Below, in pieces: positions 1,105-49,974 of a stretch of DNA of 62,962 bases. Within the stretch, counting starts at the first letter, position 1, and every line of letters begins with the position of its first letter. The notes beneath the pieces are model-generated. The model had not been told where the DNA came from. It did no database searches and saw nothing but the letters and a program-made list of their open reading frames with translations. The position numbers and the translations under genes were made by a program. Source of the stretch: an uncultured Polyangiales bacterium (GTDB lineage: Bacteria > Myxococcota_A > Polyangia > Polyangiales > CAYWAT01). The stretch spans positions 1 to 62,962 of the forward strand of contig CAYWAT010000002.1 in the NCBI GenBank assembly GCA_964456305.1. Reading direction: 5' to 3'.

Positions 1105-2670
1105 ATGTCCGAGCCCATAACAAGACGAAAATTCCTCCAGAACGCCGCTACCACCGCCACGGCCGTCCTTAGCATGCCGGTGTTTCTTGAAGCCTGCGGC
1201 GCCTCGATAAATACCGCTGGGGGCACGATGCCCAGTGAACTGAGCAAAGGGAAAAATCCCTTCATCGATATCTTCGGAATCGACGATGGCACCCTTCGGC
1301 GGACCCTCGCGACCCTTAGTGCCCGTGGCGCGGACCATGCCGACCTCTACTTTCAACGCAGCATGTCGAATTCCCTTCGCTACCAGGACGGAATCGTGTC
1401 GCAAGCGAGTACATCCATCGACCTCGGCGTTGGCCTTCGCTGCGTTGTGGGTGATCAAACTGGATATGCATACACGGAGGAGCTCACCGAGAGCGCGATG
1501 CACGCTGCTGCGCAGACCGCTGCCTTGATCGCGCACGGCAAAGCGGTTCCGGGACCTCAGCAGATCCGTCACAGAAAGTTGGGCGGAGGGTTCTACTCAA
1601 CCGAGTTGCCCTGGCGCGATGTCGGCATCGACAAGAAGCTGCCGATCGTTCGACGGGTGGCTGAACTCGCAGAGCGAAGGGATCCCGCGATCAAGAAAGT
1701 CGAGGTCCGCTGGTCGGATGGCGAGTCACGCGTGATGATCGCAACGTTGGACGGCAACGTGGTCTACGATGAGCGTCCCATGGCGAGTATGTCCGTGACC
1801 GTGACCGCAGAAAAGAACGGGAAAACACATTCGAACAGGGCTAATATTGCAGGTCGCCAAGGCCTTGAGTTCTATACCGAAGCGCAGCTCGAGTTAGTGA
1901 CCAAGCAGGCCGTGGATCGCACAATGATTCTCTTCGAAGCAGGCCGCCCACCTGCCGGGGAGATGCCGGTGGTACTCGCCGCGGGCCCCAGTGGCATCCT
2001 GCTTCACGAAGCGATCGGCCACGGCATGGAGGCCGACTTCAACCGCAAGGGCGTGAGCATCTATTCCGAGATGATGGGTAAAAAAGTTGCCGAAGATTTC
2101 GTCACGATTGTCGACGATGGAACGCTGGAGTTCGAGCGCGGTGCGATCAATGTCGATGACGAAGGCAAACCAGCGCAGCGCACGGTGTTGGTTGAGAACG
2201 GACACCTCCGTACCTACATGCACGATCAGATCAGCGCCAAGCAGTATGGGGTCAAGCCAACCGGTTCAGGACGCCGCCAGTCCTTTCGACACGCGCCAAT
2301 GCCGCGCATGCGTTGCACCTTTATGGAAGACGGACCTCACAGTCGAGAGGAGATCATCGCGAGCGTCAAGAATGGAATCCTGGCTGAGACCTTTACCAAC
2401 GGCCAGGTACAGATCGGTGCTGGCGACTACACCTTCTACATCAAGAACGGCTACCGAATCGAAGACGGCAAGGTGACGGAGCCGATCAAAGATATCAACA
2501 TCATTGGCAACGGACCTGAGACCTTGCGCAAGATCACCATGGCAGCGGCCGATGGTCATCTCGATACAGGCGGTTGGACCTGTGGCAAGAGCGGCCAAAG
2601 AGTCCCCGTCTCCCAGGGCATCCCGACGGTTCTTGTCTCTGCGCTCACGGTTGGAGGCGAAAATGCCTGA
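1105..2670 (+). CDS. tldD: TldD-family metalloprotease with twin-arginine (Tat) signal
   Basis: 521 aa. The HEAIGHGMEADF metal-binding motif and overall TldD-like sequence support the call. The N-terminus MSEPITRRKFLQNAATTATAVLSMPVFLEACG has a Tat-type RRxFL motif plus a hydrophobic stretch. Confidence 0.9.
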   Translation: MSEPITRRKFLQNAATTATAVLSMPVFLEACGASINTAGGTMPSELSKGKNPFIDIFGIDDGTLRRTLATLSARGADHADLYFQRSMSNSLRYQDGIVSQASTSIDLGVGLRCVVGDQTGYAYTEELTESAMHAAAQTAALIAHGKAVPGPQQIRHRKLGGGFYSTELPWRDVGIDKKLPIVRRVAELAERRDPAIKKVEVRWSDGESRVMIATLDGNVVYDERPMASMSVTVTAEKNGKTHSNRANIAGRQGLEFYTEAQLELVTKQAVDRTMILFEAGRPPAGEMPVVLAAGPSGILLHEAIGHGMEADFNRKGVSIYSEMMGKKVAEDFVTIVDDGTLEFERGAINVDDEGKPAQRTVLVENGHLRTYMHDQISAKQYGVKPTGSGRRQSFRHAPMPRMRCTFMEDGPHSREEIIASVKNGILAETFTNGQVQIGAGDYTFYIKNGYRIEDGKVTEPIKDINIIGNGPETLRKITMAAADGHLDTGGWTCGKSGQRVPVSQGIPTVLVSALTVGGENA

Positions 2671-4125: not shown

Positions 4126-4713
4126 ATGGGTCGTCCGCGTGAATACGATGAGGAGGAAGTTCTCGAAGAGGCCATGTTGCTGTTTTGGTCGACTGGCTAC
4201 GAGGCAACCAGCATGAGCCACCTCGTGGAAGCGACGGGCTTGGCCAAAGGGAGTCTCTATCAGGCGTTCGGCGACAAACAGAAGCTTTTTCTCGAGGCTC
4301 TCGAGCGTTACCTCACACGGGGCCGGCAATACCTTCGCGAGTGTTTGGGCAGTGCGGAGAGCGGATACGCTGGCCTAAGCAACTGGATGCTCGAAAATGC
4401 TCGGCAGTCTACATGCAGTGGCATTCGCAAGGGGTGTTTTGCCGTTAATACAGCTGTGGAGCTCGCACCTCACAACCCAGTAGCTCGCAAGGTCCTGCAA
4501 GCGCATGAGCGAAAGATGGAGCAGCTCTATGAAGCGTGTATTGTTCGTGGCCTCGAAGACGGAAGCCTTTCCAGCTCAGTAGAGCCCGCGGCTTGTGCGC
4601 GATGGATCACCACGACGATCTACGGTTTACAGATTCGAGCCAAGCTCGGCATGACCCACAAGCAGGGCATTGAAACGGTCAAACAGGCTCTTGCTTCAAT
4701 CGCCTCAGGATAA
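4126..4713 (+). CDS. TetR/AcrR family transcriptional regulator
   Basis: ORF 4009..4713. From the ATG at 4126 the N-terminus MGRPREYDEEEVLEEAMLLFWSTGYEATSMSHLVEATGLAKGSLYQAFGDKQKLF is a classic TetR HTH. Confidence 0.85.
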   Translation: MGRPREYDEEEVLEEAMLLFWSTGYEATSMSHLVEATGLAKGSLYQAFGDKQKLFLEALERYLTRGRQYLRECLGSAESGYAGLSNWMLENARQSTCSGIRKGCFAVNTAVELAPHNPVARKVLQAHERKMEQLYEACIVRGLEDGSLSSSVEPAACARWITTTIYGLQIRAKLGMTHKQGIETVKQALASIASG

Positions 4714-13953: not shown

Positions 13954-15483
13954 TCAGCCCTTGCTGTGCTCCTCGCCATCAAAACGCAGCGCAGTATCTT
14001 TATCGGCCGTGCGCGTATGCAACTCCACCGGCCGCTTCCATAAACGAACCAGCGACTCGAGGCATTTCTCGGCCCAGTCCATACGCAAGTCCATGCCCAT
14101 GTGATCATGCACCAGCATCAGTTCACCGCGATTGCCGTGGTTCGCGTTATCCACGTAAATGAAGGGGTTGCCGCCATTGGTGAGCGACGACAGAAGCTGC
14201 TCTTTGACTTGCATAAACTGGCGTGAGGCGATTTCCCAGCGCTCGTGTCGTGGGTTGTAGCCAAAGGCATACATCTTTTGCTCGGCGACAAACTCAGGCG
14301 TGAGAAACTCATCAATAAAGGTTAAGTCGTTGTACAGTGCGCGCACTTCAAATATTTTCTGCTTGCCCAAACCCGTGCGTCTATCCCAGTTGTTACGTCG
14401 AGAAAAGCTATCGCAGTCTTCCCACTCTTTGCCGAACTGACCGCGATTCCATCGCTCTTCAATGTGGCGATAAAGCTCCACGCCCAGTTTATAAGGATTA
14501 AGCTGACCTTGCTGAGTGACCAATACACCGGCACAACGATCGGCATAATCGATGATCTCATCATCCTGACAAAGCTCCTCTGTCATCAGCTTAGAGTGCC
14601 AGTATGTTGCCCATCCTTCATTCATGATTTTGGTCTGACGTTGCGGCAGAAAGTAATAGGCTTCGCGACGAATCATCGCCACCACGTCGCGTTCCCATCG
14701 TTCTAAGGGAGCATGCTGCAACATAAATCCCAGTACATCACGCACGCGAGTCTCGGGAAATTTCTTCTTTTTCTCTTTATCGTCGGCAAGCTTTTGGCGC
14801 TGTTCTTCGACGAATGATTCGGGATTGATAAAGGGATCCATATACGCGTGATCCACACGCAACCGAGGCAATTCTTCGGAGCTTTCTTCATCAACTGTGT
14901 CGCTTTGAGAAGACAGATCATGAGGCGCAAAAGGAAGCTGAGGATCGATCAGATTTTCCAGACTCAGGCAGGTGTCGATCAGCTCTTCAATCGCTTCGAT
15001 ACCCAAGCGGTTAATCCATCGGCGCATCGTTGCCGCGTGATTCGCAATCGTATCGATCCACTTGCGAATGCTCTGCCCGCGTTCACGGTCATATCCCTGG
15101 TCGGTAATGCGAAACGCGAAGTTGTTTTTGAAAAAATCGACGTGGGCGTAGACATGCGCCATCACCAGCTTTTGATCCACCCAGGTATTGCCCTCGAGCA
15201 AATACGCCACCGAGGGATTGTTGTTGATCACCATCTCGTAGATTTTCGATAAACCGTACTCGTAGTTTTTGGCGATGCGCTCGTACTCCATGCCAAAGCG
15301 CCAATGCGGATACCGGGTGGGAAATCCGCCATAGGCTGCAATCTCGTTCATTTGGCTGTAGTTCACCATTTCAAAGAGCACGGGATAAAAATCGAGACCA
15401 CAGGCCGCCGCTTGCTTTTCGATCTGCACCTGTAAATCGCGAATGTCGCTGGGCAGAGCGGTTTGATTGGCAAAGCGACTCAT
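13954..15483 (-). CDS. spoVR: SpoVR family protein
   Basis: 509 aa with full-length similarity to SpoVR/YcgB (…[36 protein letters not shown]…). It abuts yeaH with no gap. Confidence 0.9.
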
Positions 15484-16596
15484 TTATTTCCCCGTCCCAA
15501 GAAAGTCGCGAATGGACTCGATGATGGCGTCGCGATTGCGAATCTCACTAATGATCAAACGCGCATCATCTTTAAAATGCTGACTGAGATCTTTAAGGAA
15601 CTGCCCCGAACCGTAAGGACTTTCGACCTGGCCGTAACAAAACACATTGGCCACTGGCAGCAGCACATCTTGCATAAGGGTCAGACATTGCTGGGTGTCC
15701 TCGCCGCTCCAGTTATCGCCATCGGAAAAATGAAAGGGATAAATATTCCATTGCTCGCGCGGATAGTCGGTCTCGATGATCTTAGCCGCCAGCTGATAGG
15801 CCGAGGAAATCATGGTGCCACCCGACTCGCGTGTGCGAAAAAAGGTGTCGCGATCGACTTCACGCGCAACGGCGTCGTGAATGATATAACGTGTAGCCAG
15901 CTTGGGATAATGCTTACGCAGCCAAACATCGATCCAAAAGGTCTCTGTGCGCACAATGTCCTTTTGGTCCTGCCCCATCGATCCCGAGACATCCATCATG
16001 TAGATAATCACGGCGTTGGCGGCGGGCTCGTCGATCAGCTTGGGCGCCTTGTAACGCATATCGCTGCGCGAAGGAATGATCACCGGATTGCTGCGATCGT
16101 AGGTGCCCGATGAAATCTGACGACGCAGCGCCTGACGAAAGGTGCGCTTAAAGTGCTTGAGCGAGTTAGGGCCCACGGGACGAACGCCCACGTAACGACT
16201 CTTTTTTTCGTCCATCACTGGACGCCCTCGCGGCTCGATAGCTGGAAGCGCCAGGGCTTCGCCTAGAATATCGGCAAGCTCATCAAAACTCAGTTCGACC
16301 TCGAGAGGATGCTCACCCGGATCCTGCCCTGCTTCCCCAGCTCCAGAAGAACCCTCTTGAGGGTCGCCTCCCAAGGAATCCCCCACATCACCTTCACCCT
16401 GAGCCACCCCCCCCTGCTGCTTTTCAGCATGACGAAAGCGGGGAATGTCCACCTGTGGCAGAGGAATGGACACGCTTTTGTTGCCCTGACGTCCAAGCAA
16501 CTCGCCATGCGTCAGGTACTTGCGCAAATCTCTGCGGATGCGCCCGCGCACAATCTCGCGATAACGACTATGATCTTGACCGATTCGAAGTGCCAC
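15484..16596 (-). CDS. yeaH: YeaH/YhbH family protein (DUF444)
   Basis: 370 aa. [18 protein letters not shown]…[11 protein letters not shown]…[13 protein letters not shown] match YhbH/YeaH. The start is a GTG at 16596 with no obvious SD sequence. Confidence 0.85.
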
Positions 16597-16606
16597 GTTG
16601 TACGAT

Positions 16607-16716
16607 GATATCGCTTACGCAGCTCAGATACTAGAGCGAAAGCCGCCTACCAAATCGTAGCGATCACATCGGCATCTCGAATAGCCTGATCCTTGGTCAC
16701 AAGCTCAGCGTGATGT
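16607..16716. repeat. 110-bp direct repeat, copy 1 (orphan copy of the vapC 3' end plus downstream 40 bp)
   Basis: Aligns base for base with 18507..18616 at an offset of exactly 1900 bp. There are 106 identities out of 110, and the 4 mismatches are confined to 16621-16630. Confidence 0.9.
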
Positions 16717-16783
16717 ACCGATGGAGACTCACATTGATTGGCATTTCGATGATTCATGCAAACACCTCGCATGAGACTCAAAA

Positions 16784-18403
16784 CTACGTGCCACTGCGAA
16801 CACCGCTAAACAAGATCTCCATTTCTTTAGCGGCTTCTTCAAATGCTAGCGATATCTGACCGTTATGCTCAAACAAAAACTTGCCATGACTTGCCTTAAT
16901 AGGTCGGTCTAGAGGGAGCTTTCTAACGATCAATTTCTCTATCTCGCGAAGCTCTTTCTCACGTATGCATATCTCAACATAATCAGAAATTCTAAATCCC
17001 ATTCCATAAATGCTTTTAAATCCATCAAGCGAAGCAGGATTTGTCCGTGCAACTTCATCAAAGTGAAAACGTGCCATCAGCTGAGGATCTATTAAATTTG
17101 CCTCGGTGTAATCGCGACAAAATCTTTGATATGTCCTTCCCGATCGCTGGGTGCTGCTGATTACAAAAGGTAAGTCTATCGAAGACAATCCCATTGTTGC
17201 TGTTAATACCACGGCAAGAGAATCTGCTTCTATTTCTACAGAAGCAGGATGGAGTCCATCAAAATTTTTCAAGACCTCAAACGTAGTTTCTTCAAGCTGA
17301 TTTATTGCTTTATCAGCGCTTTGATGTGGATTAGAAAAAGCCTGATTAAGTGAATTTCGACGCACGGGCGAAATCACAATATTATCAATCATTGAAAAAA
17401 TAACTTTCTCAACGAAATCCTGATTCAGCTGACATTGGCTAAGAAGAGCAAGAAACACTCGCCCCCTTGCCTGAAGTTCATTGATGTAGCCCTCTGAGTC
17501 CAGAACTCCTGTGCCAGCATGGTCACCTCCAATACCTACGTAGTCAAAAACCGATGATGCACCTCTAACCAGGCCACTAGGATTGGGATGATGACAAATA
17601 AATTCAGTGCCTTTGTCTCCGTACACATGAGCCCACAAAACCCAATAAGCCATCGATGTTGTCCAGATTGACGTCGCGTTTTTCCCTGCTCCAACCATTG
17701 CAATCATGTTGCGCAAATCGAAGTAATCAATACGATCAAGATCCCGCTTAACGTCTACAAGTCGCTGAGAACTATCAATGACATTGAGAAATGAACCTGC
17801 ATAATAGTCTATATAGCGGTTTCCATGACCATAAAACAAATGAGATAATTCATGAGCTAAAACGATAGTAATGAACGTTTCATTGCGTTGATCATGTGGG
17901 ATGAATGAAAGATACCCTTGGTCGATAAAAATAGTCCACCAAGTCTTAACGGCAGGTCTTTGCGAAGGATCAGTAGAGTTAACAATCCGGGCACCAGCAT
18001 TATCGGTATCAAGAATCACAATCTCTGGCATGCCCAGTTCACGTATTGGATCATCTGGATCAAGACGCTTGAGTAAGGTCGAATAGACCTCGTAAAGCAC
18101 TCGTTCGAGATACGCATAGCTTTTGGGCGCATCACGCCGCTCGACAACTTCTGCACCAAGCAGATAAAGCAAATCGGCTCGCTCCGAGGCGGAAGCTTCG
18201 CTCCACTTGATCACGAACCTAGGATCAATATGCGAACGATTTTGCGCTAATGCGATCTCAGCACGACGCTGGAGATTTGCTCTGATAGCAGCAGTGCTTT
18301 TAGCATCCACATCTCCCGGGTTTGCAGTACCGCAAGCCCATAGTGAACACAGCATCAATAAACACAAAAATCCAATAGCGCAGTGGCTTACTCTTAAGCA
18401 CAT
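16784..18403 (-). CDS. Lipoprotein, divergent M48-like zinc metalloprotease
   Basis: ORF 16784..18409 (TTG), with an ATG at 18403. It has a lipobox LCSLWAC, an HELSHLFYGH (HExxH) motif and a downstream VEIEADSLAV resembling the E-x-E-A-D motif of M48 peptidases. The gene is visibly AT-richer than its neighbours. Confidence 0.6.
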   Translation of the reverse strand: MCLRVSHCAIGFLCLLMLCSLWACGTANPGDVDAKSTAAIRANLQRRAEIALAQNRSHIDPRFVIKWSEASASERADLLYLLGAEVVERRDAPKSYAYLERVLYEVYSTLLKRLDPDDPIRELGMPEIVILDTDNAGARIVNSTDPSQRPAVKTWWTIFIDQGYLSFIPHDQRNETFITIVLAHELSHLFYGHGNRYIDYYAGSFLNVIDSSQRLVDVKRDLDRIDYFDLRNMIAMVGAGKNATSIWTTSMAYWVLWAHVYGDKGTEFICHHPNPSGLVRGASSVFDYVGIGGDHAGTGVLDSEGYINELQARGRVFLALLSQCQLNQDFVEKVIFSMIDNIVISPVRRNSLNQAFSNPHQSADKAINQLEETTFEVLKNFDGLHPASVEIEADSLAVVLTATMGLSSIDLPFVISSTQRSGRTYQRFCRDYTEANLIDPQLMARFHFDEVARTNPASLDGFKSIYGMGFRISDYVEICIREKELREIEKLIVRKLPLDRPIKASHGKFLFEHNGQISLAFEEAAKEMEILFSGVRSGT

Positions 18404-18506
18404 AAGCAATCCAACTTCTTATAAGAACAACAGTAAGAACGAAAAGAGGCGCTAAGTTAGCACCGCCCCTAATCAGGTCAATGCAGCAATAAGCTTGCGA
18501 CGCGAG

Positions 18507-18616
18507 GATATCGCTTACGCGACCCAGATGCTAGAGCGAAAGCCGCCTACCAAATCGTAGCGATCACATCGGCATCTCGAATAGCCTGATCCTTGGTCAC
18601 AAGCTCAGCGTGATGT
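18507..18616. repeat. 110-bp direct repeat, copy 2 (resident copy overlapping the vapC 3' end)
   Basis: See copy 1. This copy covers the last 23 codons plus stop of vapC (18547-18616) and the 40 bp downstream of it. Confidence 0.9.
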
Positions 18617-18933
18617 GCCAACGCGGTTGAAACAATTAACCTATCCGCTGGATCTGCATGCATGTGATCGCCAAGTTGAGTGGACGCCGCTGCAATACTT
18701 GGAGTTAGAGGCAGTAAATTAACGCGAGGCTCTGCAAGTGCATTCTCCATCCACAGTACCACCTCGCAGTTGAGCTCGATGCGCTTTTTAGCCACCAGCA
18801 TACACATCTCCCAGCAGCTAATGGCAGCGATGCCAATGCGCTCACTTGCGTTGATACTCTCAAGTGCTTGGTCACTAAGACGATGCGGGTCGCTCATCCA
18901 CCAGATCCACGCGTGCGTATCAAGTACGATCAC
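18547..18933 (-). CDS. vapC: Type II toxin, PIN-domain ribonuclease VapC
   Basis: 128 aa. MIVLDTHAWIWW…, and conserved acidic residues (D5, E41-like, D-rich C-terminus) typical of PIN. It overlaps the upstream antitoxin by 4 bp. Confidence 0.85.
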   Translation of the reverse strand: MIVLDTHAWIWWMSDPHRLSDQALESINASERIGIAAISCWEMCMLVAKKRIELNCEVVLWMENALAEPRVNLLPLTPSIAAASTQLGDHMHADPADRLIVSTALAHHAELVTKDQAIRDADVIATIW

Positions 18934-19160
18934 GCGTTAGCGTCCCAGGCTTCATCGATCGGGGAAACAATATCGTCATGATATTTTACGCTACCCCGCA
19001 GTGACATGGGATCTCTAGAACTTAGAGGGACGAGCTTCGCGATAGGGCGCCCTCGTTTGGTAATCGTAAAACTTTTCCCTCGTTTAACTTGTTCAAGCAA
19101 TTGTGAGAGGTGAGTTTTAACCTCGAAAGCGCCCAATGATTTACCAAATTTCACCATCAA
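18930..19160 (-). CDS. Type II antitoxin, Phd/YefM family
   Basis: 76 aa. FEVKTHLSQLLEQVKRGKSFTITKRGRPIAKLVP is a Phd/YefM-type N-terminal fold. It overlaps the vapC start by 4 bp. Confidence 0.8.
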   Translation of the reverse strand: MMVKFGKSLGAFEVKTHLSQLLEQVKRGKSFTITKRGRPIAKLVPLSSRDPMSLRGSVKYHDDIVSPIDEAWDANA

Positions 19161-19256: not shown

Positions 19257-22200
19257 CTACCAGCCAGCCCCCTCTACAATCACCTTTTCGCTACGGCTGC
19301 GGCCAAAGGTTTCGGGGTGGTAGATTTCCCGAACGTGGGCAGGGGCAGCAAGGAATTGCCCCGGTGTGGTCGCACGCGTGGTGTAGGTATAGATATACAC
19401 GCCGGCAGCAAGCTGAGTGGCCATGACTTCGGCGCCTTGATTGCGCAGGTTGTGATGATCGTACCAAGCAGCAGGCATGATCCCATATCGATGTATCGTC
19501 GAAGCACGTGCATTGGTGCGCACTGGCATAGGCATAAAGGGCGGCTTGGGGTCTTGAGGATAAAGGGCCAAGTTGGGATTTTCGGGCTCAAGCCCTGCGG
19601 GCAAGGCATCGCGCACAGCCACATGGGATCGACGATCGTAAACCACTAAGGTAAGCCGCACGCGGACGCGGGACCCGGCACGCACATGCCAAGCGCCCTT
19701 TGCATAATGCACATCGTCGGGATCATCCGCGCCTTCATAACGACGCTCGATCGCAAAGCCATGATCCACAGCCGCTTGTTTCATTTGCTTGGGCGCATAC
19801 TGCATGCCCAGACGGTAATAGAGACGACCTTGCCCCTGTTTACGCAGCAAGACATCCATCCACTGCGGATGCTTAACCAACTCCGCCATGGGCACATGCT
19901 GCGCGTTGCGGTCACCAATGCGACGCAGGGTTTTCGCCGTCAACAACTGCGGTCCCAGCCATGCGCGCACATTCATGATCGCAGAAGCTTTCTTTGAAGC
20001 TGAGCGCGGACGCTCATAACGCTGGAAATAGTCGCTCAAGGCCAACGCCATAAAGCTATCTTCCTGACTATTGCCGACTCGCCGATGCTGGTAATGCTGC
20101 GTCAATCCACGCACGAGTTTGGCAATCGCATCATGCTGAGGCGCAACCCTCATCAAGCCCGCAAGCAGCAATGCGTCTGCCCTTCGCTCCGAATGCAACA
20201 GCATATAGGCCTGCTCATCGTACTGCGTCACCACATGCGCGGTTGCCGCGCTTTCGACGATGCGATTGTTTAAGTAAACCAGCACACGTTCCACTTCAGC
20301 TTTGTCGCTTGCGATCACCGGCAGCAACCAAGCCATCGCCTCGACAGGCAGCTCCTTTAAAGGAAGTGAGTGCAATAGCTCCAACGCGAAGGGCAAGGGC
20401 TTGATAGAAGCACCATCGTTGAGATGCTGCACATACAACGCATAGGCTCTCAGCGTTGTCCGCACAGGCACGGATGCGCTGGCAACGTTGCCGTGATTCT
20501 GTGCAAGGGAAGCAACGTAACGCAGCAAGGGCTTCTTCAAGATCTCTGGGACCAGATGCCCTGCTTTTTCTGCACGCAACAAGGCATGCGCCACATGAAT
20601 GCTAGCAAAGGGCGAGGTGGGCAAAGACAATCCAGGCCACACGGCAAAGCTGCCATCGCGATGCTGCAAGGCTTGCAATCGACGCAGTTGAGCGCCTAAG
20701 GCCTCTGCAGCGTGCTTGGACGAGGGCAAGTCAGAAGCACCAAGCGCCTGCTGCACTTCCGCCAAGGCCAAGCGTGTGATCATGCGTGACGCAATGGCCT
20801 CGGGAAAATGCCAAGCTTCTTTTTCGAGCCCAGTGTAAGCATCGCGCAGCACATGTAACTGCGTGCGACTAAAACGCAGATCGAGACCGCCAAACTCAGG
20901 CCATGCATCCTGCGGTGGCTTAAGCGCATAACGTCGCGCACCTTCATCAAGCTCCCCATAAGTAGCAACGCTCTCTTCGGTAGCCGGGGTCCAAACAGGT
21001 AGAGTCACCTCGGCGGCATCGCGCAACACCTCATCCTGTGCAGCAGAACGCCCTGTCGCCACCCACTGCAAACGGGCCTCACCCACCTGATTTGCCCGCG
21101 CCTTAAAACGCAGCTCGCGACGCACACCAGCAGGCAAGTGCAGACGATATCCTCTCACAGCGTCCAGCTTTAGATCACGACTGCGCAGCCCCACCTGCAC
21201 ATCAAGTGCACGGGAACTCTGATTGCGAATGAGCAACGGGATTTCCGCCCGATCACCTAGGTTGAGCAAACGCGGCGCCGAAGGCTGCAGCATCAATGCT
21301 TTGCGCACCGTCAGCGCACTCTCGCCCTTGCCGAAGAAATCTTTGTCGTGTGCTGCAAAGGCAATCACGCGATAGCGCGTGAGATTATGCGGCAGCGTCA
21401 AGCTCTGCTGTACGCGACCCTGAGCATCACTGCGCAGCGCGGGCGCAAAAAGAGCCAAGGCACGAAAATCACGCCGTACAGAGACTCCCGGCATAAGCTT
21501 GTTAGTTCTCGCGGCGTATTGGTTTTGAGCGACAGCGCTGCCCTCCAATGCATCCACATCCAGACTTTGAGCGCTCGCTCTGGCCATGTCCGTATGATCT
21601 TTATGAGCCTGACCATCTCGCCTTTTCGTTTTGTCCTGCTCGACCAGGGCCAAAACATGACGTCGTAGTTCATCACTCCAAACCCCAGGACCACGTCGAT
21701 GAAAAAATACATCTAAGGGATTCGCAAAATTGGCATCGCTGAGCGCAAGCACGGCTTCATCCACCACCAATAAAGCTACCTCAGCGTTGGCTGCAGGACG
21801 TCCATCGTGACGATTGACCTGCACCTTTAGACGCACCGGCTCACCTGGCTCGGCCACCTTAGGGATGGACTGCACCTGCGTTGTCAGCTTTTGATGCACA
21901 GGCGGGATAGCCAGCTCCACCTGTCCCGAAGCATGGCCAATATCGCCTTGCGCCGTTGTACCACGCATACCAACCGCGTGAACCTGCACATGCACATTGG
22001 GTGTAAAGGCAGCCTCCAAAGGTACCTCAATGAGGGCATGACGCTCACTTACGCGCTTTTGCTCTTGATGCACGATACCGTTGCGCATCCAGGTGATAAA
22101 AAGTTGAGCTGGTGCGAAAGGAAGCTGCAGGGCCACCCGCGCGGTATCACCCGGGCGATACGCCTCCTTGTCCGGCATCATGGTTACGCGATCTGCGTTA

Positions 22201-25200
22201 ACCCGAGCGTTGGGCAGAGTCACGTCCCCCACCACCCAATAACGCATCACGCTCTCATTAGAACGCCCAGCGCGATCGTGAGTGCGCGCGATGATGCGAT
22301 ACATGCCCGCCTTCGCGATGGGCCAACTGCAATGCCCCGCCTTCGTCATCGAGGTCGTGCGACATTGCTGCATCTCCTTGGCCTCTTCGTGCCAGCGCCC
22401 CTTGCGAAACCTTCCTTCTAAGCGCGCCACCTGGATATGAATGGGATAACCCTGCTGAAGCTCACCATCGATAGTGGTCACGATGCTCTCGATGCGCAGC
22501 ATCTCCCCAACCCGCACGAAATTCTGCGGCGTACGCAGACCCACGTAAACCTTCGCAGGGTGCAACAGCAACGCGTGACGCGCCGTCCAGGCCTGGCGAT
22601 TGAGATCCTGCACCTGGGCTTCAATCGCTATCTGACGCGGGCGCACCGGATCCATGCCTTGCCAGTCGAGGCGCAGCGTGTGCTTTCCGTGTGCGTTGGT
22701 CCGGCCCTCATAACGTTGCCTGGTGGCGGCCTGCGGCATGCGCCAGTCCTCAAACCACCAGGGATTCCATTCGCCAAAATGAAAGTCATCTTGATTAGGC
22801 GGCCTAAAATGTCCCTTCTGGGAGCGCACTGTCCACTTGACCGAAGCGTTGGCCAGCCCTCCACCCGCATAATAGTTAGCCTGCACGGTGGCCTCGCTGG
22901 GTTCTTTGAGCAGATGGAAAGCCTTTGCCATATCCAGCGACACTTCAAACTCCGGTCGCCGATAGCTCTGCACCTGCACATGATGAATAGTGATATGGGG
23001 AGAGCGCTGACGATCTTTAGAGGGCTTGCTGGCGTACAACGTCACCGTTGCCGTCCCTAGATTGGCCTCCTTAGGAAAAGTAGTCTTAAGATCGAAGCCG
23101 CCCAATGTGCTCAGCTTCAGCGGACCCTCACTCAGGACATTGCCACGTGCTCCGGTGAGGCGATAAAAAAGGTTGCGCGGCAGTTCAGCGAGCCCCGCAA
23201 TGCCGCCGCGCGGACGCATGTCCAGCTTACGCAGCCAACCTTTGAGACGAAGAGCCTCGCCTGGCTGATAAACGCCTCTGTCGTCGGTGATAAAGCTCTG
23301 CCAGCGCGGACTTTGGGCTTGATGAGGATGATAGGCATGAGGCAACAAAGCCCTGTCCTCGCCATGCTGCACCTCGATCAATGATCGACCTTCCGAATCT
23401 TTTTTCGCCTTTGGACCGAGCTTAAACTGAGCCATTCCGGCTGCGTTCGTCCGCGCTTCAACGCCCAAAGGACGGACACGCACCTGCGCATTCGCGATGG
23501 GTTCACCCGTCTTTAGAGAGGTCACCGCCACCTGCAGTGTCGTATCGTCTTGCCATGAACTAATGCCCAACTGCGTTGACTGCACCCACAGCACGCGATG
23601 GGCTGGATCATGAACCGGTCGCTTAGACGAAGAAGCTGAACGTAGCTCGACGATCAGATGTCCTTGGCCTCGATTATTGAGCCAACGCGAGAGCGATAAA
23701 TCCGTGGCGACTTGCCCGCTTTTCCAGCCCGCCGGAACCTTTACATCCTGAGTCGCCAGCAAGGTGCCCGGCCACTGCACCAGCACGCGTGGGTCGCCCT
23801 TGGCATTAAAGCCATAACGCTGTGTACGACGTAGAGCTTTGTAGTAGTCGGGCCACTGGTGAGGCTCGACACGTCGCACCTTAGCCCGCAACCTCGGCAA
23901 GCCTTGCGAAAGCACTCTGAGCTTGGGGACTGCGGCCCAAGGGTTGAGCACCAACTGCTCTCGATGCAGCGCAATGCTTGGTCGTACTGGTTGCACCCGC
24001 ATTGTTACAGGCTTTGTCGCTCCCAGCGTTTGACCAAAAACATCGCGCAGGGTTGGCGGCAAGTTGAGCTTGTACACGGTATCGGCCTGCATCTTGCCAG
24101 ACAGCACCAAGCCCCAAGGGTTCACCTGCAGCTCAAGCCCATCAACCACTGGCTGCACCTGGATATCGCGCACATCGATAGCCTGCTCCGCCAGGGCGTG
24201 GTTGAAGTTAATGTGCCAACTGTCCTGTGCTCTGCATGGGCGCTTCGCGTTGCAATTCGCCCCCTTGAAAGCCAGGGGACCGTAGGTTTGAAAGCTGTGC
24301 GTGAATGCCCGCGCACTAAGACGAGGGCCTTCCTGAGACGGAGCCCCGGCTTTGATACGCAGCTGCACCTTACTGCCTCTGGGCAGAGCCTGTGTTGGCA
24401 ACAAGGTCAGAGTTCTGGTTTGCAGCTCATCAACATGCGCTGCCTTGAGTTGAGCCTGAGCTTTGGGGTGCGCCTTGAGATCGGCAGCCGTAGCCTGACG
24501 CAGCGCATAAGAGCGACCTCGGCTGCGTAGCTCGACCCATTCCAGGACTTTGTGGGCATCAATCGCTTGGTTGAAACGCAGGATCATCGGCGTTTGATTT
24601 GAGTATTCACCCTTAGACGGAGGCCACACCTTGCTCACCTCGAGAGCAGGTGTCGTAAAACGCGTCGTGTACGAGCGCCGAAGGGTCTTACCCGCCGCAG
24701 ACTTCAATCCTGCGGGGATTTTCAGGGTGTACGCGGTCGCCATCGGAAAGCGTCGTGTTTTTCCCTGACTTCGAGGCTCAAAAAGCAGGGTGCGCGTCCC
24801 CACCCAACGCCATTGTCCCGGCGGTTGCGGCTCAAGACGAATAGCCGGCAAGGAACTGCGGGCATCGATATGCGCCGCAAGAGCAACCATAGGCTGGGAA
24901 AAAACAATGCTCAGATGCGAGGCAATATCAACATCACCCTTGGGCGTGACGCGTATTACCTTAAGAGGGCCAGAATCGTCGCGATCTTCAGGTGCAGCAG
25001 CGTTAGTCGGAAACGCAGTCTGCACAGGGACCTCATCCTGCTGTGGCCGCGGCATAGACGTGGATGGCAACGCAAAGGTTTTCTTAGACGGCGCAGGTTT
25101 AGCGCTTGGCTCAGCGAGGCCAGCAAAAAGAGGTGTGACGTGTTCAGAATCAAGAGTCTCTATTGAGTCGCTGTCATCGTCAGCGATCGAGGACTTTACC

Positions 25201-25385
25201 GCTGCAGAGTCGTTGGATGCGCTTTGCTCTAGCTTGAAGACAAGACCATCGTCCTTGCTTTTGCTCTGCTCTTGCGCGGACTCGATAGGAGGCAGCGGTA
25301 ATGCTTGCGAGCCTGGCGATAAACTTTGACTGCAGCCCAAGCCTAGCGCGATAACGAAAGTGATGAGCGATCGCATACTTTGCAT
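19257..25385 (-). CDS. Alpha-2-macroglobulin family lipoprotein (2042 aa, no thioester motif)
   Basis: It has a lipobox ALGLGCSQS. A2M hallmarks are VVDEAVLAL, RRDFRALALFAP…, LPHNLTRYRVIAFA, HRDGSFAVWPG and DALPAGLEPENP. The C-terminal ~1000 residues contain no Cys at all, so no CxEQ thioester is possible. Confidence 0.85.
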   Translation of the reverse strand: MQSMRSLITFVIALGLGCSQSLSPGSQALPLPPIESAQEQSKSKDDGLVFKLEQSASNDSAAVKSSIADDDSDSIETLDSEHVTPLFAGLAEPSAKPAPSKKTFALPSTSMPRPQQDEVPVQTAFPTNAAAPEDRDDSGPLKVIRVTPKGDVDIASHLSIVFSQPMVALAAHIDARSSLPAIRLEPQPPGQWRWVGTRTLLFEPRSQGKTRRFPMATAYTLKIPAGLKSAAGKTLRRSYTTRFTTPALEVSKVWPPSKGEYSNQTPMILRFNQAIDAHKVLEWVELRSRGRSYALRQATAADLKAHPKAQAQLKAAHVDELQTRTLTLLPTQALPRGSKVQLRIKAGAPSQEGPRLSARAFTHSFQTYGPLAFKGANCNAKRPCRAQDSWHINFNHALAEQAIDVRDIQVQPVVDGLELQVNPWGLVLSGKMQADTVYKLNLPPTLRDVFGQTLGATKPVTMRVQPVRPSIALHREQLVLNPWAAVPKLRVLSQGLPRLRAKVRRVEPHQWPDYYKALRRTQRYGFNAKGDPRVLVQWPGTLLATQDVKVPAGWKSGQVATDLSLSRWLNNRGQGHLIVELRSASSSKRPVHDPAHRVLWVQSTQLGISSWQDDTTLQVAVTSLKTGEPIANAQVRVRPLGVEARTNAAGMAQFKLGPKAKKDSEGRSLIEVQHGEDRALLPHAYHPHQAQSPRWQSFITDDRGVYQPGEALRLKGWLRKLDMRPRGGIAGLAELPRNLFYRLTGARGNVLSEGPLKLSTLGGFDLKTTFPKEANLGTATVTLYASKPSKDRQRSPHITIHHVQVQSYRRPEFEVSLDMAKAFHLLKEPSEATVQANYYAGGGLANASVKWTVRSQKGHFRPPNQDDFHFGEWNPWWFEDWRMPQAATRQRYEGRTNAHGKHTLRLDWQGMDPVRPRQIAIEAQVQDLNRQAWTARHALLLHPAKVYVGLRTPQNFVRVGEMLRIESIVTTIDGELQQGYPIHIQVARLEGRFRKGRWHEEAKEMQQCRTTSMTKAGHCSWPIAKAGMYRIIARTHDRAGRSNESVMRYWVVGDVTLPNARVNADRVTMMPDKEAYRPGDTARVALQLPFAPAQLFITWMRNGIVHQEQKRVSERHALIEVPLEAAFTPNVHVQVHAVGMRGTTAQGDIGHASGQVELAIPPVHQKLTTQVQSIPKVAEPGEPVRLKVQVNRHDGRPAANAEVALLVVDEAVLALSDANFANPLDVFFHRRGPGVWSDELRRHVLALVEQDKTKRRDGQAHKDHTDMARASAQSLDVDALEGSAVAQNQYAARTNKLMPGVSVRRDFRALALFAPALRSDAQGRVQQSLTLPHNLTRYRVIAFAAHDKDFFGKGESALTVRKALMLQPSAPRLLNLGDRAEIPLLIRNQSSRALDVQVGLRSRDLKLDAVRGYRLHLPAGVRRELRFKARANQVGEARLQWVATGRSAAQDEVLRDAAEVTLPVWTPATEESVATYGELDEGARRYALKPPQDAWPEFGGLDLRFSRTQLHVLRDAYTGLEKEAWHFPEAIASRMITRLALAEVQQALGASDLPSSKHAAEALGAQLRRLQALQHRDGSFAVWPGLSLPTSPFASIHVAHALLRAEKAGHLVPEILKKPLLRYVASLAQNHGNVASASVPVRTTLRAYALYVQHLNDGASIKPLPFALELLHSLPLKELPVEAMAWLLPVIASDKAEVERVLVYLNNRIVESAATAHVVTQYDEQAYMLLHSERRADALLLAGLMRVAPQHDAIAKLVRGLTQHYQHRRVGNSQEDSFMALALSDYFQRYERPRSASKKASAIMNVRAWLGPQLLTAKTLRRIGDRNAQHVPMAELVKHPQWMDVLLRKQGQGRLYYRLGMQYAPKQMKQAAVDHGFAIERRYEGADDPDDVHYAKGAWHVRAGSRVRVRLTLVVYDRRSHVAVRDALPAGLEPENPNLALYPQDPKPPFMPMPVRTNARASTIHRYGIMPAAWYDHHNLRNQGAEVMATQLAAGVYIYTYTTRATTPGQFLAAPAHVREIYHPETFGRSRSEKVIVEGAGW

Positions 25386-26413: not shown

Positions 26414-26953
26414 CTAATTCTGATAATAGAAATGAGAGTTACACCCTTTCAAATCAACAAATCCTCCCCCAGAGAACCAAACAGTCGCCATTCCATCTTC
26501 TTCAGGAAGAGCAGTTTCTGAGATGGTTCTCTCATAAGGGTCAGAATCTTGACCATTTATTGTTATTTTCAAATGAGCACGGGTGTTATCATCTTTTGTC
26601 TCTGTTGGCTTGTAATAGAGACGTTTTTTATCGTATTCAGGCGCTGGTTTAGGAAGCATTTCCATGACATCTAAAGACATAAATATAAAATCATTTTTGG
26701 CACTCACAAACAGCTGACGCTTAGCTTCCAAACTCGAGCCAAACATCTCTATGCCAATCGGCACGGATTCAAAAGAATGAGCCTCAACATTAGGAGATTT
26801 CATCCAGTTATAGCTACTGCAGGTCCATTTCCTTTCCACCGTATATTCCCGAGGAGTTCGTTTTTCCAAGGCCAAGTCACTTCTGCTTGTTTCTGATACC
26901 GAGCAGGCATTAGCCAAGGAAATCAATCCTATAAAAACCATTAGTTTTTTCAT
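26414..26953 (-). CDS. Hypothetical lipoprotein (AT-rich islet)
   Basis: 179 aa. It has a signal peptide plus lipobox MKKLMVFIGLISLANAC. No family was recognised. Local composition is clearly AT-richer than the flanks. Confidence 0.6.
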   Translation of the reverse strand: MKKLMVFIGLISLANACSVSETSRSDLALEKRTPREYTVERKWTCSSYNWMKSPNVEAHSFESVPIGIEMFGSSLEAKRQLFVSAKNDFIFMSLDVMEMLPKPAPEYDKKRLYYKPTETKDDNTRAHLKITINGQDSDPYERTISETALPEEDGMATVWFSGGGFVDLKGCNSHFYYQN

Positions 26954-30389: not shown

Positions 30390-30452
30390 ACACCCATCTC
30401 GGCTAAACACCCTCTTTGCTGGTACTGGACCGCCCTCAATTTGCGTTGAGCC

Positions 30453-30604
30453 TGAGCGCGCCCGGACCACAGCGACGAAGGCGTATTAAAGATACGTCGA
30501 CCTCCAGCTCCGCCGCACTCTGCTGCCCTGCTTACGCAGGCGCTCGCTTCGCTCGCACGCATCGTGAGGAGCGAACGCAAGCCAGGTTCAGAGTGAAGTG
30601 AGAG
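30453..30604. repeat. Interspersed intergenic repeat, copy A (inverted, diverged relative of 37779..37995)
   Basis: Three blocks match the reverse complement of copy B. Block 30453-30486 (34 nt) equals rc of 37933-37966 exactly. Block 30535-30560 (26 nt) equals rc of 37867-37892 exactly. Block 30588-30604 equals rc of 37788-37804 at 16/17. Confidence 0.85.
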
Positions 30605-37295: not shown

Positions 37296-37384
37296 AGCAG
37301 CTTTGTGTCACCCAGCCTGCGCTTTTGCTCCCCCCAGCGCGCACTTTGCTTCGGACACCTTGCATCTCTCGGCTACACAGCTCT

Positions 37385-37494
37385 CACCCTTGGCGTTGGT
37401 ACCCTGCACCCTTCGATCACCCAGGTCGCACCCTTGGCTCTGACAGCGTGCACTTTTTGCGCATCCAGGTCGCACCTCGCTTCGATCACCTTGC
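37385..37494. repeat. 22-bp-phased direct repeat array 1 (core CACCCTT)
   Basis: CACCCTT starts at 37385, 37407 and 37429. Degenerate copies CACTTT and CACCTC start at 37451 and 37473. All starts are exactly 22 bp apart. Confidence 0.75.
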
Positions 37495-37547
37495 CGCCCG
37501 GGGTCTGCATACCCTAACCTTTGCTCCGATGGCACTGCTCCCACCGC

Positions 37548-37767
37548 GCACCACCCCTGTCCGAGGGGTGGACTGGTGCCATCTGACCATGGGACCACCT
37601 TGGCCGGAGGGGTGGACCACCTACAACTGACCCCAGGACCACCCTTCACCGAGGGGTGGACCACCTTCGCCGGAGCATGGGAGCGGCGACATCTGACCCC
37701 AGGACCACCCTTGCCGGAGGGGTGGACCACCCCTGTCCGAGCAGGGGACCACCCTTCGCCGAGCAAA
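37548..37767. repeat. 22-bp-phased direct repeat array 2 (about 10 units, core GGACCACC(C)TT)
   Basis: GGACCACC starts at 37592, 37614, 37636, 37658, 37702, 37724 and 37746. Degenerate units start at 37548, 37570 and 37680. Every start is a multiple of 22 bp from the others. Confidence 0.85.
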
Positions 37768-37778
37768 AAATCCAGCAC

Positions 37779-37995
37779 TCGAGATCGCTCTCGCTTCACT
37801 CTGACCTTGGCTTACGGCCGGCTGCTAAGCAAAGCGACGACTGCGAAGCATCAGACTCTGTGGGCTGCGTGCGAGCGAAGCGAGCGCCTGCGAAGCAGGT
37901 AGCAGCACCTAACAATTAAAGAGTATCTCTCTATACGCCTTCGTCGCTGTGGTCCGGGCGCGCTCAAGTTCAAAGCAAAGCGAGAGCGATCTCGA
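37779..37995. repeat. 217-bp MITE-like element / long hairpin with perfect 18-bp terminal inverted repeats (copy B)
   Basis: TCGAGATCGCTCTCGCTT (37779-37796) is the exact reverse complement of AAGCGAGAGCGATCTCGA (37978-37995). The interior shares three blocks with 30453..30604 in inverted orientation. No target-site duplication is obvious. Confidence 0.75.
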
Positions 37996-42730: not shown

Positions 42731-43057
42731 TTATTCTTGATTTTCGCAGGTGTTATCAATCGTTATGGTACCTAAATGTTCACAGAACTTCTCTATTCTG
42801 CGCCGTTGGCAGGTATAATAGCGTCTTTCAGTCTTGATCATACTCCTATCCGGACATTGAACCCATATCAATGAGTCTGGGCAGTCATCATCAGTTTCAC
42901 ATCGCTCTCCTTCAGAGGTGAGATCTGGACCTTGAAAATTAGGGTCTTTTGCTTTTTCAGTTTCTCCGATGCCATCGACATCGGCTGCACAAGCACTGAG
43001 TCCACAAAGACTAAATACAACGCCTAAAATAATCATGTTTTTTGTAATATATTTCAT
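42731..43057 (-). CDS. Hypothetical Cys-rich lipoprotein (AT-rich islet)
   Basis: 108 aa. It has a lipobox FSLCGLSAC and 8 further Cys residues in the mature part. Local sequence is AT-rich. Confidence 0.55.
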   Translation of the reverse strand: MKYITKNMIILGVVFSLCGLSACAADVDGIGETEKAKDPNFQGPDLTSEGERCETDDDCPDSLIWVQCPDRSMIKTERRYYTCQRRRIEKFCEHLGTITIDNTCENQE

Positions 43058-43299
43058 TCTAATCCTTACTTCTAAGTTACTGATATTCTAAAATAAATAA
43101 CTATATTCAAATCTGCTTATACCACATTTTTATACATAATGCCAGTGGGTAAGTCTAACACACCGCTGAACTGACATAATTTTTATCACTTACCTTTGCC
43201 CACATTGCGGGCCTGCAGTGTCTCATGAGTAGCAGATGAAATTCGTTGCACTAAGGCAATGATTTCTTGCTTATTTTTATATTCTCATGGGATTTTAGT

Positions 43300-43737
43300 A
43301 TGAAAAAATTAGTGATTGTGTCCTTGTTTTTATTCTTAGCATCAGCGTGTAGTAATGTAGAAGGAAGCGGCTTTGACGAAAGTACGAAGTCAAACAATTT
43401 TAGCTTCGATTGTGATAATGAACATATTGAATCATCTGTTTTTTCTCAAGGAAATGACCTTTACTTTGTCGCTACAAGCAAAGAAGAAAACGGAGAGTAC
43501 TTTGTCACCAAGAGTCCTATGAAGTTCGAGTCATGGGCAGGAAATGGGACTCATATCTTCTCTTCATCCTGGGAATCAGGAAGCCATGCAACAATCGTGA
43601 GAAAGAAGAGTGGCTCAGATGATCAGGAGCATGACATCGATAAAATCCATGTGGTTGTATCAGGCGGAAAAACTAGAAAGATATCTCTTTTTGAGATCGG
43701 AGAATCAAATCCATTCTGGCCAATAGATTGCTACTAA
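43300..43737 (+). CDS. Hypothetical lipoprotein (AT-rich islet)
   Basis: ORF 43267..43737, with the ATG at 43300 giving MKKLVIVSLFLFLASAC (signal plus lipobox). No family was recognised. Confidence 0.6.
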   Translation: MKKLVIVSLFLFLASACSNVEGSGFDESTKSNNFSFDCDNEHIESSVFSQGNDLYFVATSKEENGEYFVTKSPMKFESWAGNGTHIFSSSWESGSHATIVRKKSGSDDQEHDIDKIHVVVSGGKTRKISLFEIGESNPFWPIDCY

Positions 43738-49815: not shown

Positions 49816-49974
49816 AGGCAAAACCTCCTCGTTCACGGCTTAAGTTATGTACGCTAATAAATCTCATAAACGCTCGATTCCGTTTATGATCCCTAACTCT
49901 TTGACGAAGGGCAAACCAATTTATGAAAATTGGTCTTATTTTTGCGTTGTCTCAAACTGTGCCAAGTTACGCTA

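Follow-up and report, generated by a model that had tools for sequence, protein, structure and literature searches.

A foreign single-gene insert between direct repeats of a vapC 3' end in an uncultured Polyangiales bacterium

In Escherichia coli, the elements e14 and phage 21 integrate inside the icd gene and carry a surrogate 3' end for it; elements of this type encode their own integrase and are 15-40 kb in length. In Campbell-type integration, which is known mainly from plasmids and laboratory constructs, a homologous patch is duplicated as direct repeats around the inserted DNA. A third class, the cis-mobilizable elements (CIMEs), comprises decayed integrative elements that keep attL and attR and are devoid of integration and transfer genes (Guedon et al. 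2017, PMC5704250). This work deals with a locus in the chromosome of an uncultured Polyangiales bacterium in which an insert of 1.9 kb, with a single gene coding for a predicted lipoprotein, lies between two direct repeats of the 3' end of vapC, the toxin gene of a VapBC toxin-antitoxin (TA) module. The stretch of DNA analysed, here called the window, comprises positions 1 to 62,962 (63 kb) of contig CAYWAT010000002.1 of the GenBank assembly GCA_964456305.1.

The order of the locus on the minus strand is alpha-2-macroglobulin gene, vapB, vapC, repeat copy B, insert gene, repeat copy A, yeaH and spoVR (Table 1). The vapB and vapC genes overlap by 4 bp (18930-18933), and the pair has the characteristics of a type II TA VapBC system. 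The two repeat copies, as delimited by the repeat search, are 117 nt long and 95% identical, with a start-to-start offset of 1900 bp. In the alignment, 106 of the 110 positions between 16607-16716 and 18507-18616 match, and the four mismatches (16621, 16622, 16624 and 16630) are all located in one decamer. Both the degree of identity at this offset and the clustering in the decamer 16621-16630 had been pointed out in a previous sequence-only reading of the window, and the repeat search and the alignment agree with it on the first point and the alignment on the second. Two further mismatches are found at the repeat edges (16606 and 16717), leaving a perfect core of 86 bp (16631-16716 in copy A and 18531-18616 in copy B). 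The probability of finding four mismatches inside 10 of 110 positions is 0.0015, that of a clean run of at least 86 in 117 positions with six mismatches is 0.0016, and five of the six mismatches are concentrated in 28 nt at one edge of the repeat (Fisher P = 0.0007). The substitutions in the decamer are mixed transitions (a/g, g/a, t/c and a/g), all of them 3' of the vapC stop codon, and the 70 coding bases of the repeat are 100% identical between the copies.

In its 110-bp version, the resident copy B contains the end of vapC, the stop codon and 40 bp beyond, as had been read from the letters, the coding part being exactly 22 codons plus one base. Copy A is an orphan fragment placed upstream of yeaH, also as described before, although the gap to the yeaH start codon measures 10 bp and not 11 bp. 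No sequence likeness extends past the repeat boundaries on either side. A probe of the 86-nt core matched these two sites only in the 63 kb of the window (chance expectation, 0), and no other long direct repeat occurs in the window, if tRNA-derived similarities and a local tandem array are left aside.

The DNA between the repeats is compositionally foreign. The GC content of 16717-18506 is 0.437 versus 0.552 in the whole window, the GC content at third codon positions (GC3) of the insert gene is 0.369 versus 0.53-0.67 in the neighbour genes, and the insert is among the two most deviant 1.8-kb stretches of the window in terms of GC and tetranucleotides, so the AT-richness attributed earlier to the insert holds on the three measures. 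The vapBC genes are also somewhat AT-shifted, with a GC3 of 0.44 for vapB and 0.535 for vapC. The cargo gene is intact, with spacers of 97-103 bp from copy B and of 67 bp to copy A. Terminal inverted repeats are absent from the insert, its terminal alignment score being no better than those of shuffled sequences. A Pfam scan has been carried out with the plausible genes among the open reading frames (ORFs) of at least 150 aa, which amounted to 42 ORFs after leaving out those overlapping them on the other strand or in another frame. Ten of the 42 ORFs, including the 539-aa cargo ORF, matched no Pfam family, and no recombinase, integrase, transposase or reverse transcriptase was detected among them, in agreement with the lack of a recombinase noted before these scans.

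When this locus is compared with the systems mentioned above, it presents two marks of elements bounded by attL- and attR-type sites: direct repeats at both ends, with copy B completing vapC and copy A being an orphan, and a foreign origin of the DNA between them. A third mark, an integrase (tyrosine or serine recombinase) in or near the element, is lacking; an autonomous element cannot do without it, and a CIME by definition has none. The locus resembles a CIME in having foreign DNA between direct repeats, with the 3' end of the target gene rebuilt by one of them, and in carrying no integrase, so that the insert would potentially be excisable only with help in trans. It differs in the small size of the insert (only 1.9 kb, one cargo gene), in the length of the repeat (110-117 bp) and in its target, which is the 3' end of a toxin gene, vapC, instead of a tRNA or housekeeping gene; moreover, neither a related intact element nor a helper or an excision product is known for it. 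With e14 and phage 21 it shares an intact gene that ends in an element-borne copy, an orphan 3' fragment at the far junction and few differences between both copies; in contrast to them, the insert is devoid of integrase and the coding parts of the copies do not differ at all. With Campbell-type integration it shares a homologous patch duplicated as direct repeats around inserted DNA. In kind, this locus belongs to a known class, foreign DNA between att-like direct repeats without a recombinase of its own, and it is a fairly ordinary trace of acquisition.

Both junctions of the insert are real. Five further contigs from four other assemblies (L001, L002, L135, L136 and L138) carry parts of the locus, and all of them agree with the window. 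Contig L001, a scaffold produced by another pipeline, spans the whole structure with a 99.986% match over 14.5 kb (2 mismatches). Contig L002, assembled with k = 141, extends from the alpha-2-macroglobulin gene across vapC and copy B, with the copy-B variants, into the insert, and contig L138 starts 19 bp inside the insert end (16735) and continues through the copy-A variants into yeaH. As the 86-bp core is shorter than both k = 141 and the read length, the two junctions with their diagnostic variants are supported by reads. The window is a contig from a metagenome, and one MEGAHIT assembly is broken inside copy A, between the end of L002 (16638) and the start of L138 (16735); the assembler could be imagined to have threaded into the chromosome a small circle, or a strain variant, that has the repeat in common with it. 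Such an artefact is very improbable, because the core is shorter than k and than the reads, the single contig L002 joins the vapC flank, the copy-B variants and the insert, L138 joins the insert end, the copy-A variants and yeaH, L001 covers everything, L135 and L136 concur, and no contig contains alternative joins or an empty site. The break in copy A is attributable to an 86-bp repeat at modest coverage; population heterogeneity was rejected as its cause, both contig ends carrying the sequence of the occupied state. An assembly duplication, which would have disproved the sequence-only reading, is therefore excluded by independent contigs across both junctions.

Look-ups of the exact cargo, VapC and YeaH proteins retrieved the same occupied locus only, in four other assemblies. 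Among 185,579 species genomes, the closest relatives of YeaH were found in metagenome-assembled genomes (MAGs) of Polyangiales/Myxococcota with 70-71% identity, which indicates that the organism has no close sequenced relative, and neither vapBC nor the cargo gene nor an alpha-2-macroglobulin gene was located near these yeaH genes. The best VapC relatives showed at most 57% identity in the Joint Genome Institute (JGI) metagenomes and at most 60% in a set of 5.8 billion proteins. In the assemblies holding the organism no second vapC with at least 90% identity was found, its cluster having one member, with contigs of this locus only, and the next best sequence being 60% identical. Searches in viral contigs, plasmids and phages revealed nothing similar to the cargo gene or the repeat. 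In the closest relatives, prkA ends a few bases upstream of yeaH, and it lies within 10 kb upstream of yeaH in 66 of the 74 relatives with enough upstream sequence (8 lack it); prkA is absent from the whole 63-kb window, which means that the DNA upstream of yeaH was rearranged at some time.

Self-comparison of 49 metagenome loci with VapC homologues, using yeaH loci as controls, revealed numerous long direct repeats in the vicinity of the TA genes. Direct-repeat pairs of at least 35 bp within 5 kb numbered 44 in 0.27 Mb of vapC loci versus 20 in 1.42 Mb of control loci, and most of the control pairs were low-identity tandem repeats. Loci having direct repeats with at least 90% identity and a spacing of at least 300 bp were about 9 of 49 for vapC, a count read by hand off the repeat listings and not scripted, versus 2 of 80 for the controls (P = 0.003). 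Three cases display the geometry of the window around a homologous vapBC. In the first (L089), vapBC lies behind a hexapeptide acetyltransferase gene and in front of an orphan 198-bp copy of the 3' end of that gene, and the nine codon differences between the copies are all synonymous. Dolichospermum planctonicum UHCC 0167 (L139), an isolate genome, and a metagenome contig with high coverage (L140) have the same acetyltransferase-vapBC-orphan structure; as it is common to three strains, it must be old. The likeness with the window includes an intact upstream gene, an insert, an orphan copy of the 3' end of that gene, a VapC homologous to that of the window (54% identity, protein P0040 of L139) and no recombinase nearby. 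The roles are different, with the TA pair as the insert and the acetyltransferase gene as the target in Dolichospermum, and with the toxin gene as the target and an orphan lipoprotein gene as the insert in the window. In the three contigs the copies differ by synonymous changes, and variants are shared in mosaic between the intact and orphan Dolichospermum copies, which indicates gene conversion.

The remaining case is a high-GC TA island at 2686-7728 of L085 (near-identical to L083) that includes hicB-like, MNT, mazEF, higBA, vapBC and relE/parE-like genes. Here, an orphan 66-bp 3' end of a nucleotidyltransferase gene directly follows vapC, a 234-bp duplication of the mazE 3' end/mazF 5' end flanks the higBA pair, and the 5' end of an ABC-transporter gene is present three times, its copies differing by synonymous changes only. 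No integrase was found in the 12 kb of L085, and its nested repeats look like serial accretion of cassettes at one gene end. Around this vapBC family, inserts flanked by long duplicates of the end of a neighbouring gene are thus a recurrent feature, also in a finished isolate genome. No direct precedent for TA-linked gene-end duplications was found in the literature, only the general review on integrative mobilizable elements and CIMEs (PMC5704250). As a separate observation, an element of 165-190 bp occurs six times in locus L102 (1127-5715), upstream of a vapC homologue, with 88-94% identity and at intervals of 0.8-1 kb; the element is an imperfect long palindrome (GCCAATGCTGCATGCGCG...CGCGCATGCAAAACATTGGC), and the locus looks like a cassette array with an unusual repeat.

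The explanation preferred here, to which about an even chance is given, is that a foreign circular DNA was integrated at the vapC end through a single reciprocal crossover with the chromosome, in a patch of about 110 bp common to both. The incoming circular molecule would have carried one lipoprotein gene and a patch of about 110 bp homologous to the vapC 3' end with its trailing 40 bp, and the reciprocal crossover would have occurred within the 86-bp stretch where the chromosome and the incoming patch were identical. An identity of 86 bp is enough substrate for RecA. The product would be, in this order, an intact vapC with its tail partly derived from the element, the insert, the orphan vapC 3' fragment and yeaH, with the repeats as an attL/attR-like pair; the decamer 18521-18530 would correspond to the incoming version and 16621-16630 to the original chromosomal one. 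The process may have been a one-off, RecA-dependent Campbell insertion, or the insert may be a minimal or decayed CIME-like element that used an integrase acting in trans or since lost. Loss of the insert would now probably require homologous recombination between the two 86-bp cores or an enzyme acting in trans. A single crossover accounts for the direct repeats, for the match between the repeat interval and the composition outlier, for the integrity of vapC and for the one-sided clustering of the mismatches. A perfect core with mismatches at one edge fits a crossover in a partly diverged patch, and is unlikely to come from the random decay of a duplication formed in situ.

Several observations weigh against this explanation. 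None of the collections searched contained an empty site, an excised circle, a donor, or another copy of the repeat or of the cargo gene, so integration is read from its scar only. No integrase is encoded in the 16 kb to one side or in the 44 kb to the other. An orphan vapC 3' fragment was found in none of the 49 metagenome loci with vapC homologues, and for this reason the vapC end is not demonstrably a recurrent attachment site. As the coding parts of the two copies are identical, the window gives no signal of synonymous differences. Homogenisation of the Dolichospermum copies by gene conversion indicates that a perfect core with edge mismatches can arise secondarily; the repeats of Dolichospermum remain 95-98% identical across diverged strains by this process, and the core of the window is therefore no proof of a recent event. 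Finally, a circle bearing only the last 23 codons of vapC would itself have to be the product of an earlier event, and we know of no source of a natural, non-replicating 1.9-kb circle that bears only a vapC end.

The absence of prkA from the window would be accommodated by a different history, in which copy A is the remnant of a second vapBC module. Two near-identical modules would each have ended about 40 bp past the vapC stop, the second vapC lying beside yeaH, and a deletion or rearrangement, which also brought yeaH to its present place, would have placed the sequence that follows the lipoprotein gene directly against codon -23 of this second vapC; the repeat would then be a by-product and the supposed cassette an old neighbour of the first vapBC. 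The sharp boundary at 16716/16717 resembles a deletion endpoint, vapBC is itself compositionally atypical, and its family is frequent in variable, repeat-rich TA islands. This history is nonetheless rather unlikely: at least three events are needed (duplication or second insertion of vapBC, gain of the AT-rich gene, and deletion), the lack in the assemblies of the organism of another vapC with at least 90% identity speaks against it, and it does not of itself account for the exact match of the strongest composition outlier to the repeat interval. Somewhat less probable still is a target duplication of about 115 bp produced in situ when the repair of a staggered double-strand break or of a collapsed fork took in foreign DNA, through end joining with fill-in or through template switching; the edge mismatches would then be due to error-prone processing or later mutation, and the identical core would have been kept by gene conversion. 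The repeats around vapBC elsewhere vary in length (36, 40, about 200 and about 240 bp), which favors this mechanism and argues against one fixed site-specific core, and the mismatches are clustered within 27 nt of the insert junction of copy B. Gene conversion has a precedent in Dolichospermum, and later allelic recombination could give differences that are synonymous only. On the other side, four transitions in one decamer beside 86 clean bases are unlike independent later mutation, filler or microhomology at the junction is limited to 'GG', and to our knowledge no bacterial mechanism routinely gives target duplications of at least 100 bp.

That the structure is one of the known repeat-based systems, namely an integron cassette with attC, a diversity-generating retroelement (DGR) with its pair of template and variable repeats, or a transposon, is hardly credible. 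TA modules are common as integron cassettes, some loci with vapC homologues resemble cassette arrays (L102), and a repeat at the 3' end of a gene recalls the variable repeat of a DGR; nevertheless, no attC fold, core sites, intI, reverse transcriptase, inverted termini or transposase were present. For the integron cassette, the repeat lacks the hairpin fold of attC (z-scores of -0.3 to -1.6), the core sites GTTRRRY and RYYYAAC are absent in and near both copies, intI is lacking, and the repeat, with only two copies in 63 kb, holds true coding sequence of a PIN domain. For the DGR, the mismatches are not adenine-specific and lie outside the coding part, and no reverse transcriptase was found. 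A transposon or insertion sequence was rejected for its missing terminal inverted repeats and transposase and because the duplication is tenfold too long; with 110-117 bp, the repeat is indeed far too long for a transposon target duplication, as had been argued from the letters. Among the known RNA families of Rfam, only tRNAs were found in the window at the gathering threshold. A much broader proposal, which finds some support in the comparison of loci but must be considered unlikely, is that TA genes and their neighbour genes have ends that act as landing pads for small (about 1-2.5 kb) integrase-less cassettes with surrogate gene ends, captured by one mechanism not yet described. The insert of the window, the vapBC insert of Dolichospermum and the units of L085 would all be products of a trans-acting recombinase or of a homology-primed process, TA islands would grow by serial capture, and an addictive TA module would shield the adjacent cargo from loss.

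The 539-aa cargo protein contains the lipobox LWAC and the motifs HELSHLFYGH and EIEADS already named in the sequence-only reading, with HELSH at residues 184-188 and EIEAD at residues 390-394. No match to Pfam (including PF01435) or NCBIfam was obtained at E-values up to 0.1 to 1, and a word-indexed search of 5.8 billion clusters recovered no match besides the query. A full HMMER scan of 1.84 billion representatives yielded one remote relative (P0002, E = 5e-6), and the cargo family thus has two members among the approximately 15 billion proteins searched. P0002 aligns with the cargo protein over the full length with 25% identity, and both have in common the lipobox, HELSHL, E..AD and several C-terminal positions. 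The P0002 gene adjoins hflX in an unrelated MAG, with neither a TA module nor repeats near it. A profile built with the two proteins gave a single match against all PDB sequences, the M48 peptidase 3c37, at the HExxH motif and with a non-significant E-value of 1.4, and the AlphaFold2 model obtained from the two-sequence alignment was unusable, with a predicted local distance difference test (pLDDT) score of 36.6. The cargo protein resembles the M48 peptidases (LoiP, YcaL and 3c37) in the motif of the type HExxHxxxxHG (AHELSHLFYGHG in the cargo protein and AHEINHAVARHG in 3c37), in a later E-x-x-A-D motif and in the lipoprotein signal. It differs from them in the distance between the motifs, about 200 residues from HELSH to EIEAD versus roughly 60-75 residues in M48 peptidases. 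An M48-like zinc lipoprotein protease is a reasonable guess for its function; of the earlier M48-like assignment, the HExxH and EIEAD motifs stand and a significant profile match does not, either in Pfam and NCBIfam or against PDB, and this name is based on the motifs.

Other features of the window are the following. The chimeric 44-aa ORF across the insert end and copy A, called as 36 aa in another assembly, is probably accidental. More AT-rich islets were found between housekeeping genes at 42731-43737 (GC 0.38-0.43) and 26414-26953 (GC 0.40); their products are small orphan proteins, a lipobox being present in two of them (108 aa and 156 aa), and flanking repeats, which were searched for around both islets, were not found. 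Together with the cargo gene, these islets suggest a repeated gain of AT-rich lipoprotein genes. A pair of inverted repeats of 59 nt (30428-30486 and 37933-37991), 88% complementary and with a perfect core of 35 nt (TGAGCGCGCCCGGACCACAGCGACGAAGGCGTAT), encloses a segment of 7.4 kb with gpsA, an MFS transporter gene and the genes coding for an M74 peptidase, for an unknown protein of 549 aa and for a class IV aminotransferase; the pair may represent repeat elements, or else the two termini of a segment that is invertible or mobile. A tandem repeat at 37583-37765, with a unit of 22 nt and super-units of 44 and 66 nt (GGACCACC...; 76-82% matches), is located in or beside a 163-aa ORF without Pfam match (37308-37799, minus strand). 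ARAGORN calls a 91-nt tRNA-Gly at 48844-48934, inside the sigma-54 (rpoN) ORF 48340-49836, and as Rfam gives no tRNA match at this position, it is probably a false positive.

Table 1. Coordinates of the features of the vapC locus in the window and of the acetyltransferase 3'-end repeats in the loci used for comparison.
Feature	Coordinates	Strand	Remarks
Alpha-2-macroglobulin (A2M) gene	19257-25385	-	Pfam
vapB (Phd/YefM antitoxin)	18930..19160	-	PF02604, E = 1.8e-9; TIGR01552, E = 1.9e-10
vapC (PIN-domain toxin)	18547..18933	-	PF01850, E = 3.2e-17; 3' end is the target or shared patch
Repeat copy B (resident)	18503..18619	-	Last 22 codons and 1 base of vapC, stop 18547-18549, ~44 bp downstream
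Terminator-like hairpin followed by T-run	18448..18464	-	In the insert, between vapC and the cargo gene; consensus scan only
Insert, unique part	16717..18506	-	1790 bp
Cargo gene of the insert (539-aa predicted lipoprotein)	16784..18403	-	ORF; alternative TTG start 18409
Chimeric 44-aa ORF	16647..16781	-	22 residues from the insert end and 22 C-terminal VapC residues from copy A
Repeat copy A	16603..16719	-	Orphan vapC 3' fragment
yeaH (DUF444)	15484..16596	-	Pfam; GTG start; downstream of the insert
spoVR	13954-15483	-	Pfam
Acetyltransferase 3'-end repeats, L139	3415-3633 / 4432-4651		200-220 bp
Acetyltransferase 3'-end repeats, L140	3371-3571 / 4388-4588		200-220 bp
Acetyltransferase 3'-end repeats, L089	1313-1513 / 2358-2558		200-220 bp

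If the preferred explanation is true, this locus would be a clean, minimal case of the addition of one foreign gene to a chromosome without a mobility gene of its own, with the tail of a toxin gene acting as the patch of homology or attachment. The two identical 86-bp cores should permit the precise loss of the insert, restoring the vapC-yeaH junction. The cargo belongs to a near-singleton family of HExxH lipoproteins and has an alpha-2-macroglobulin gene in its neighbourhood. The gene-end duplications around homologous vapBC modules in unrelated bacteria may outweigh the locus itself in use, and they suggest a recurrent gain of cassettes in the neighbourhood of TA genes.

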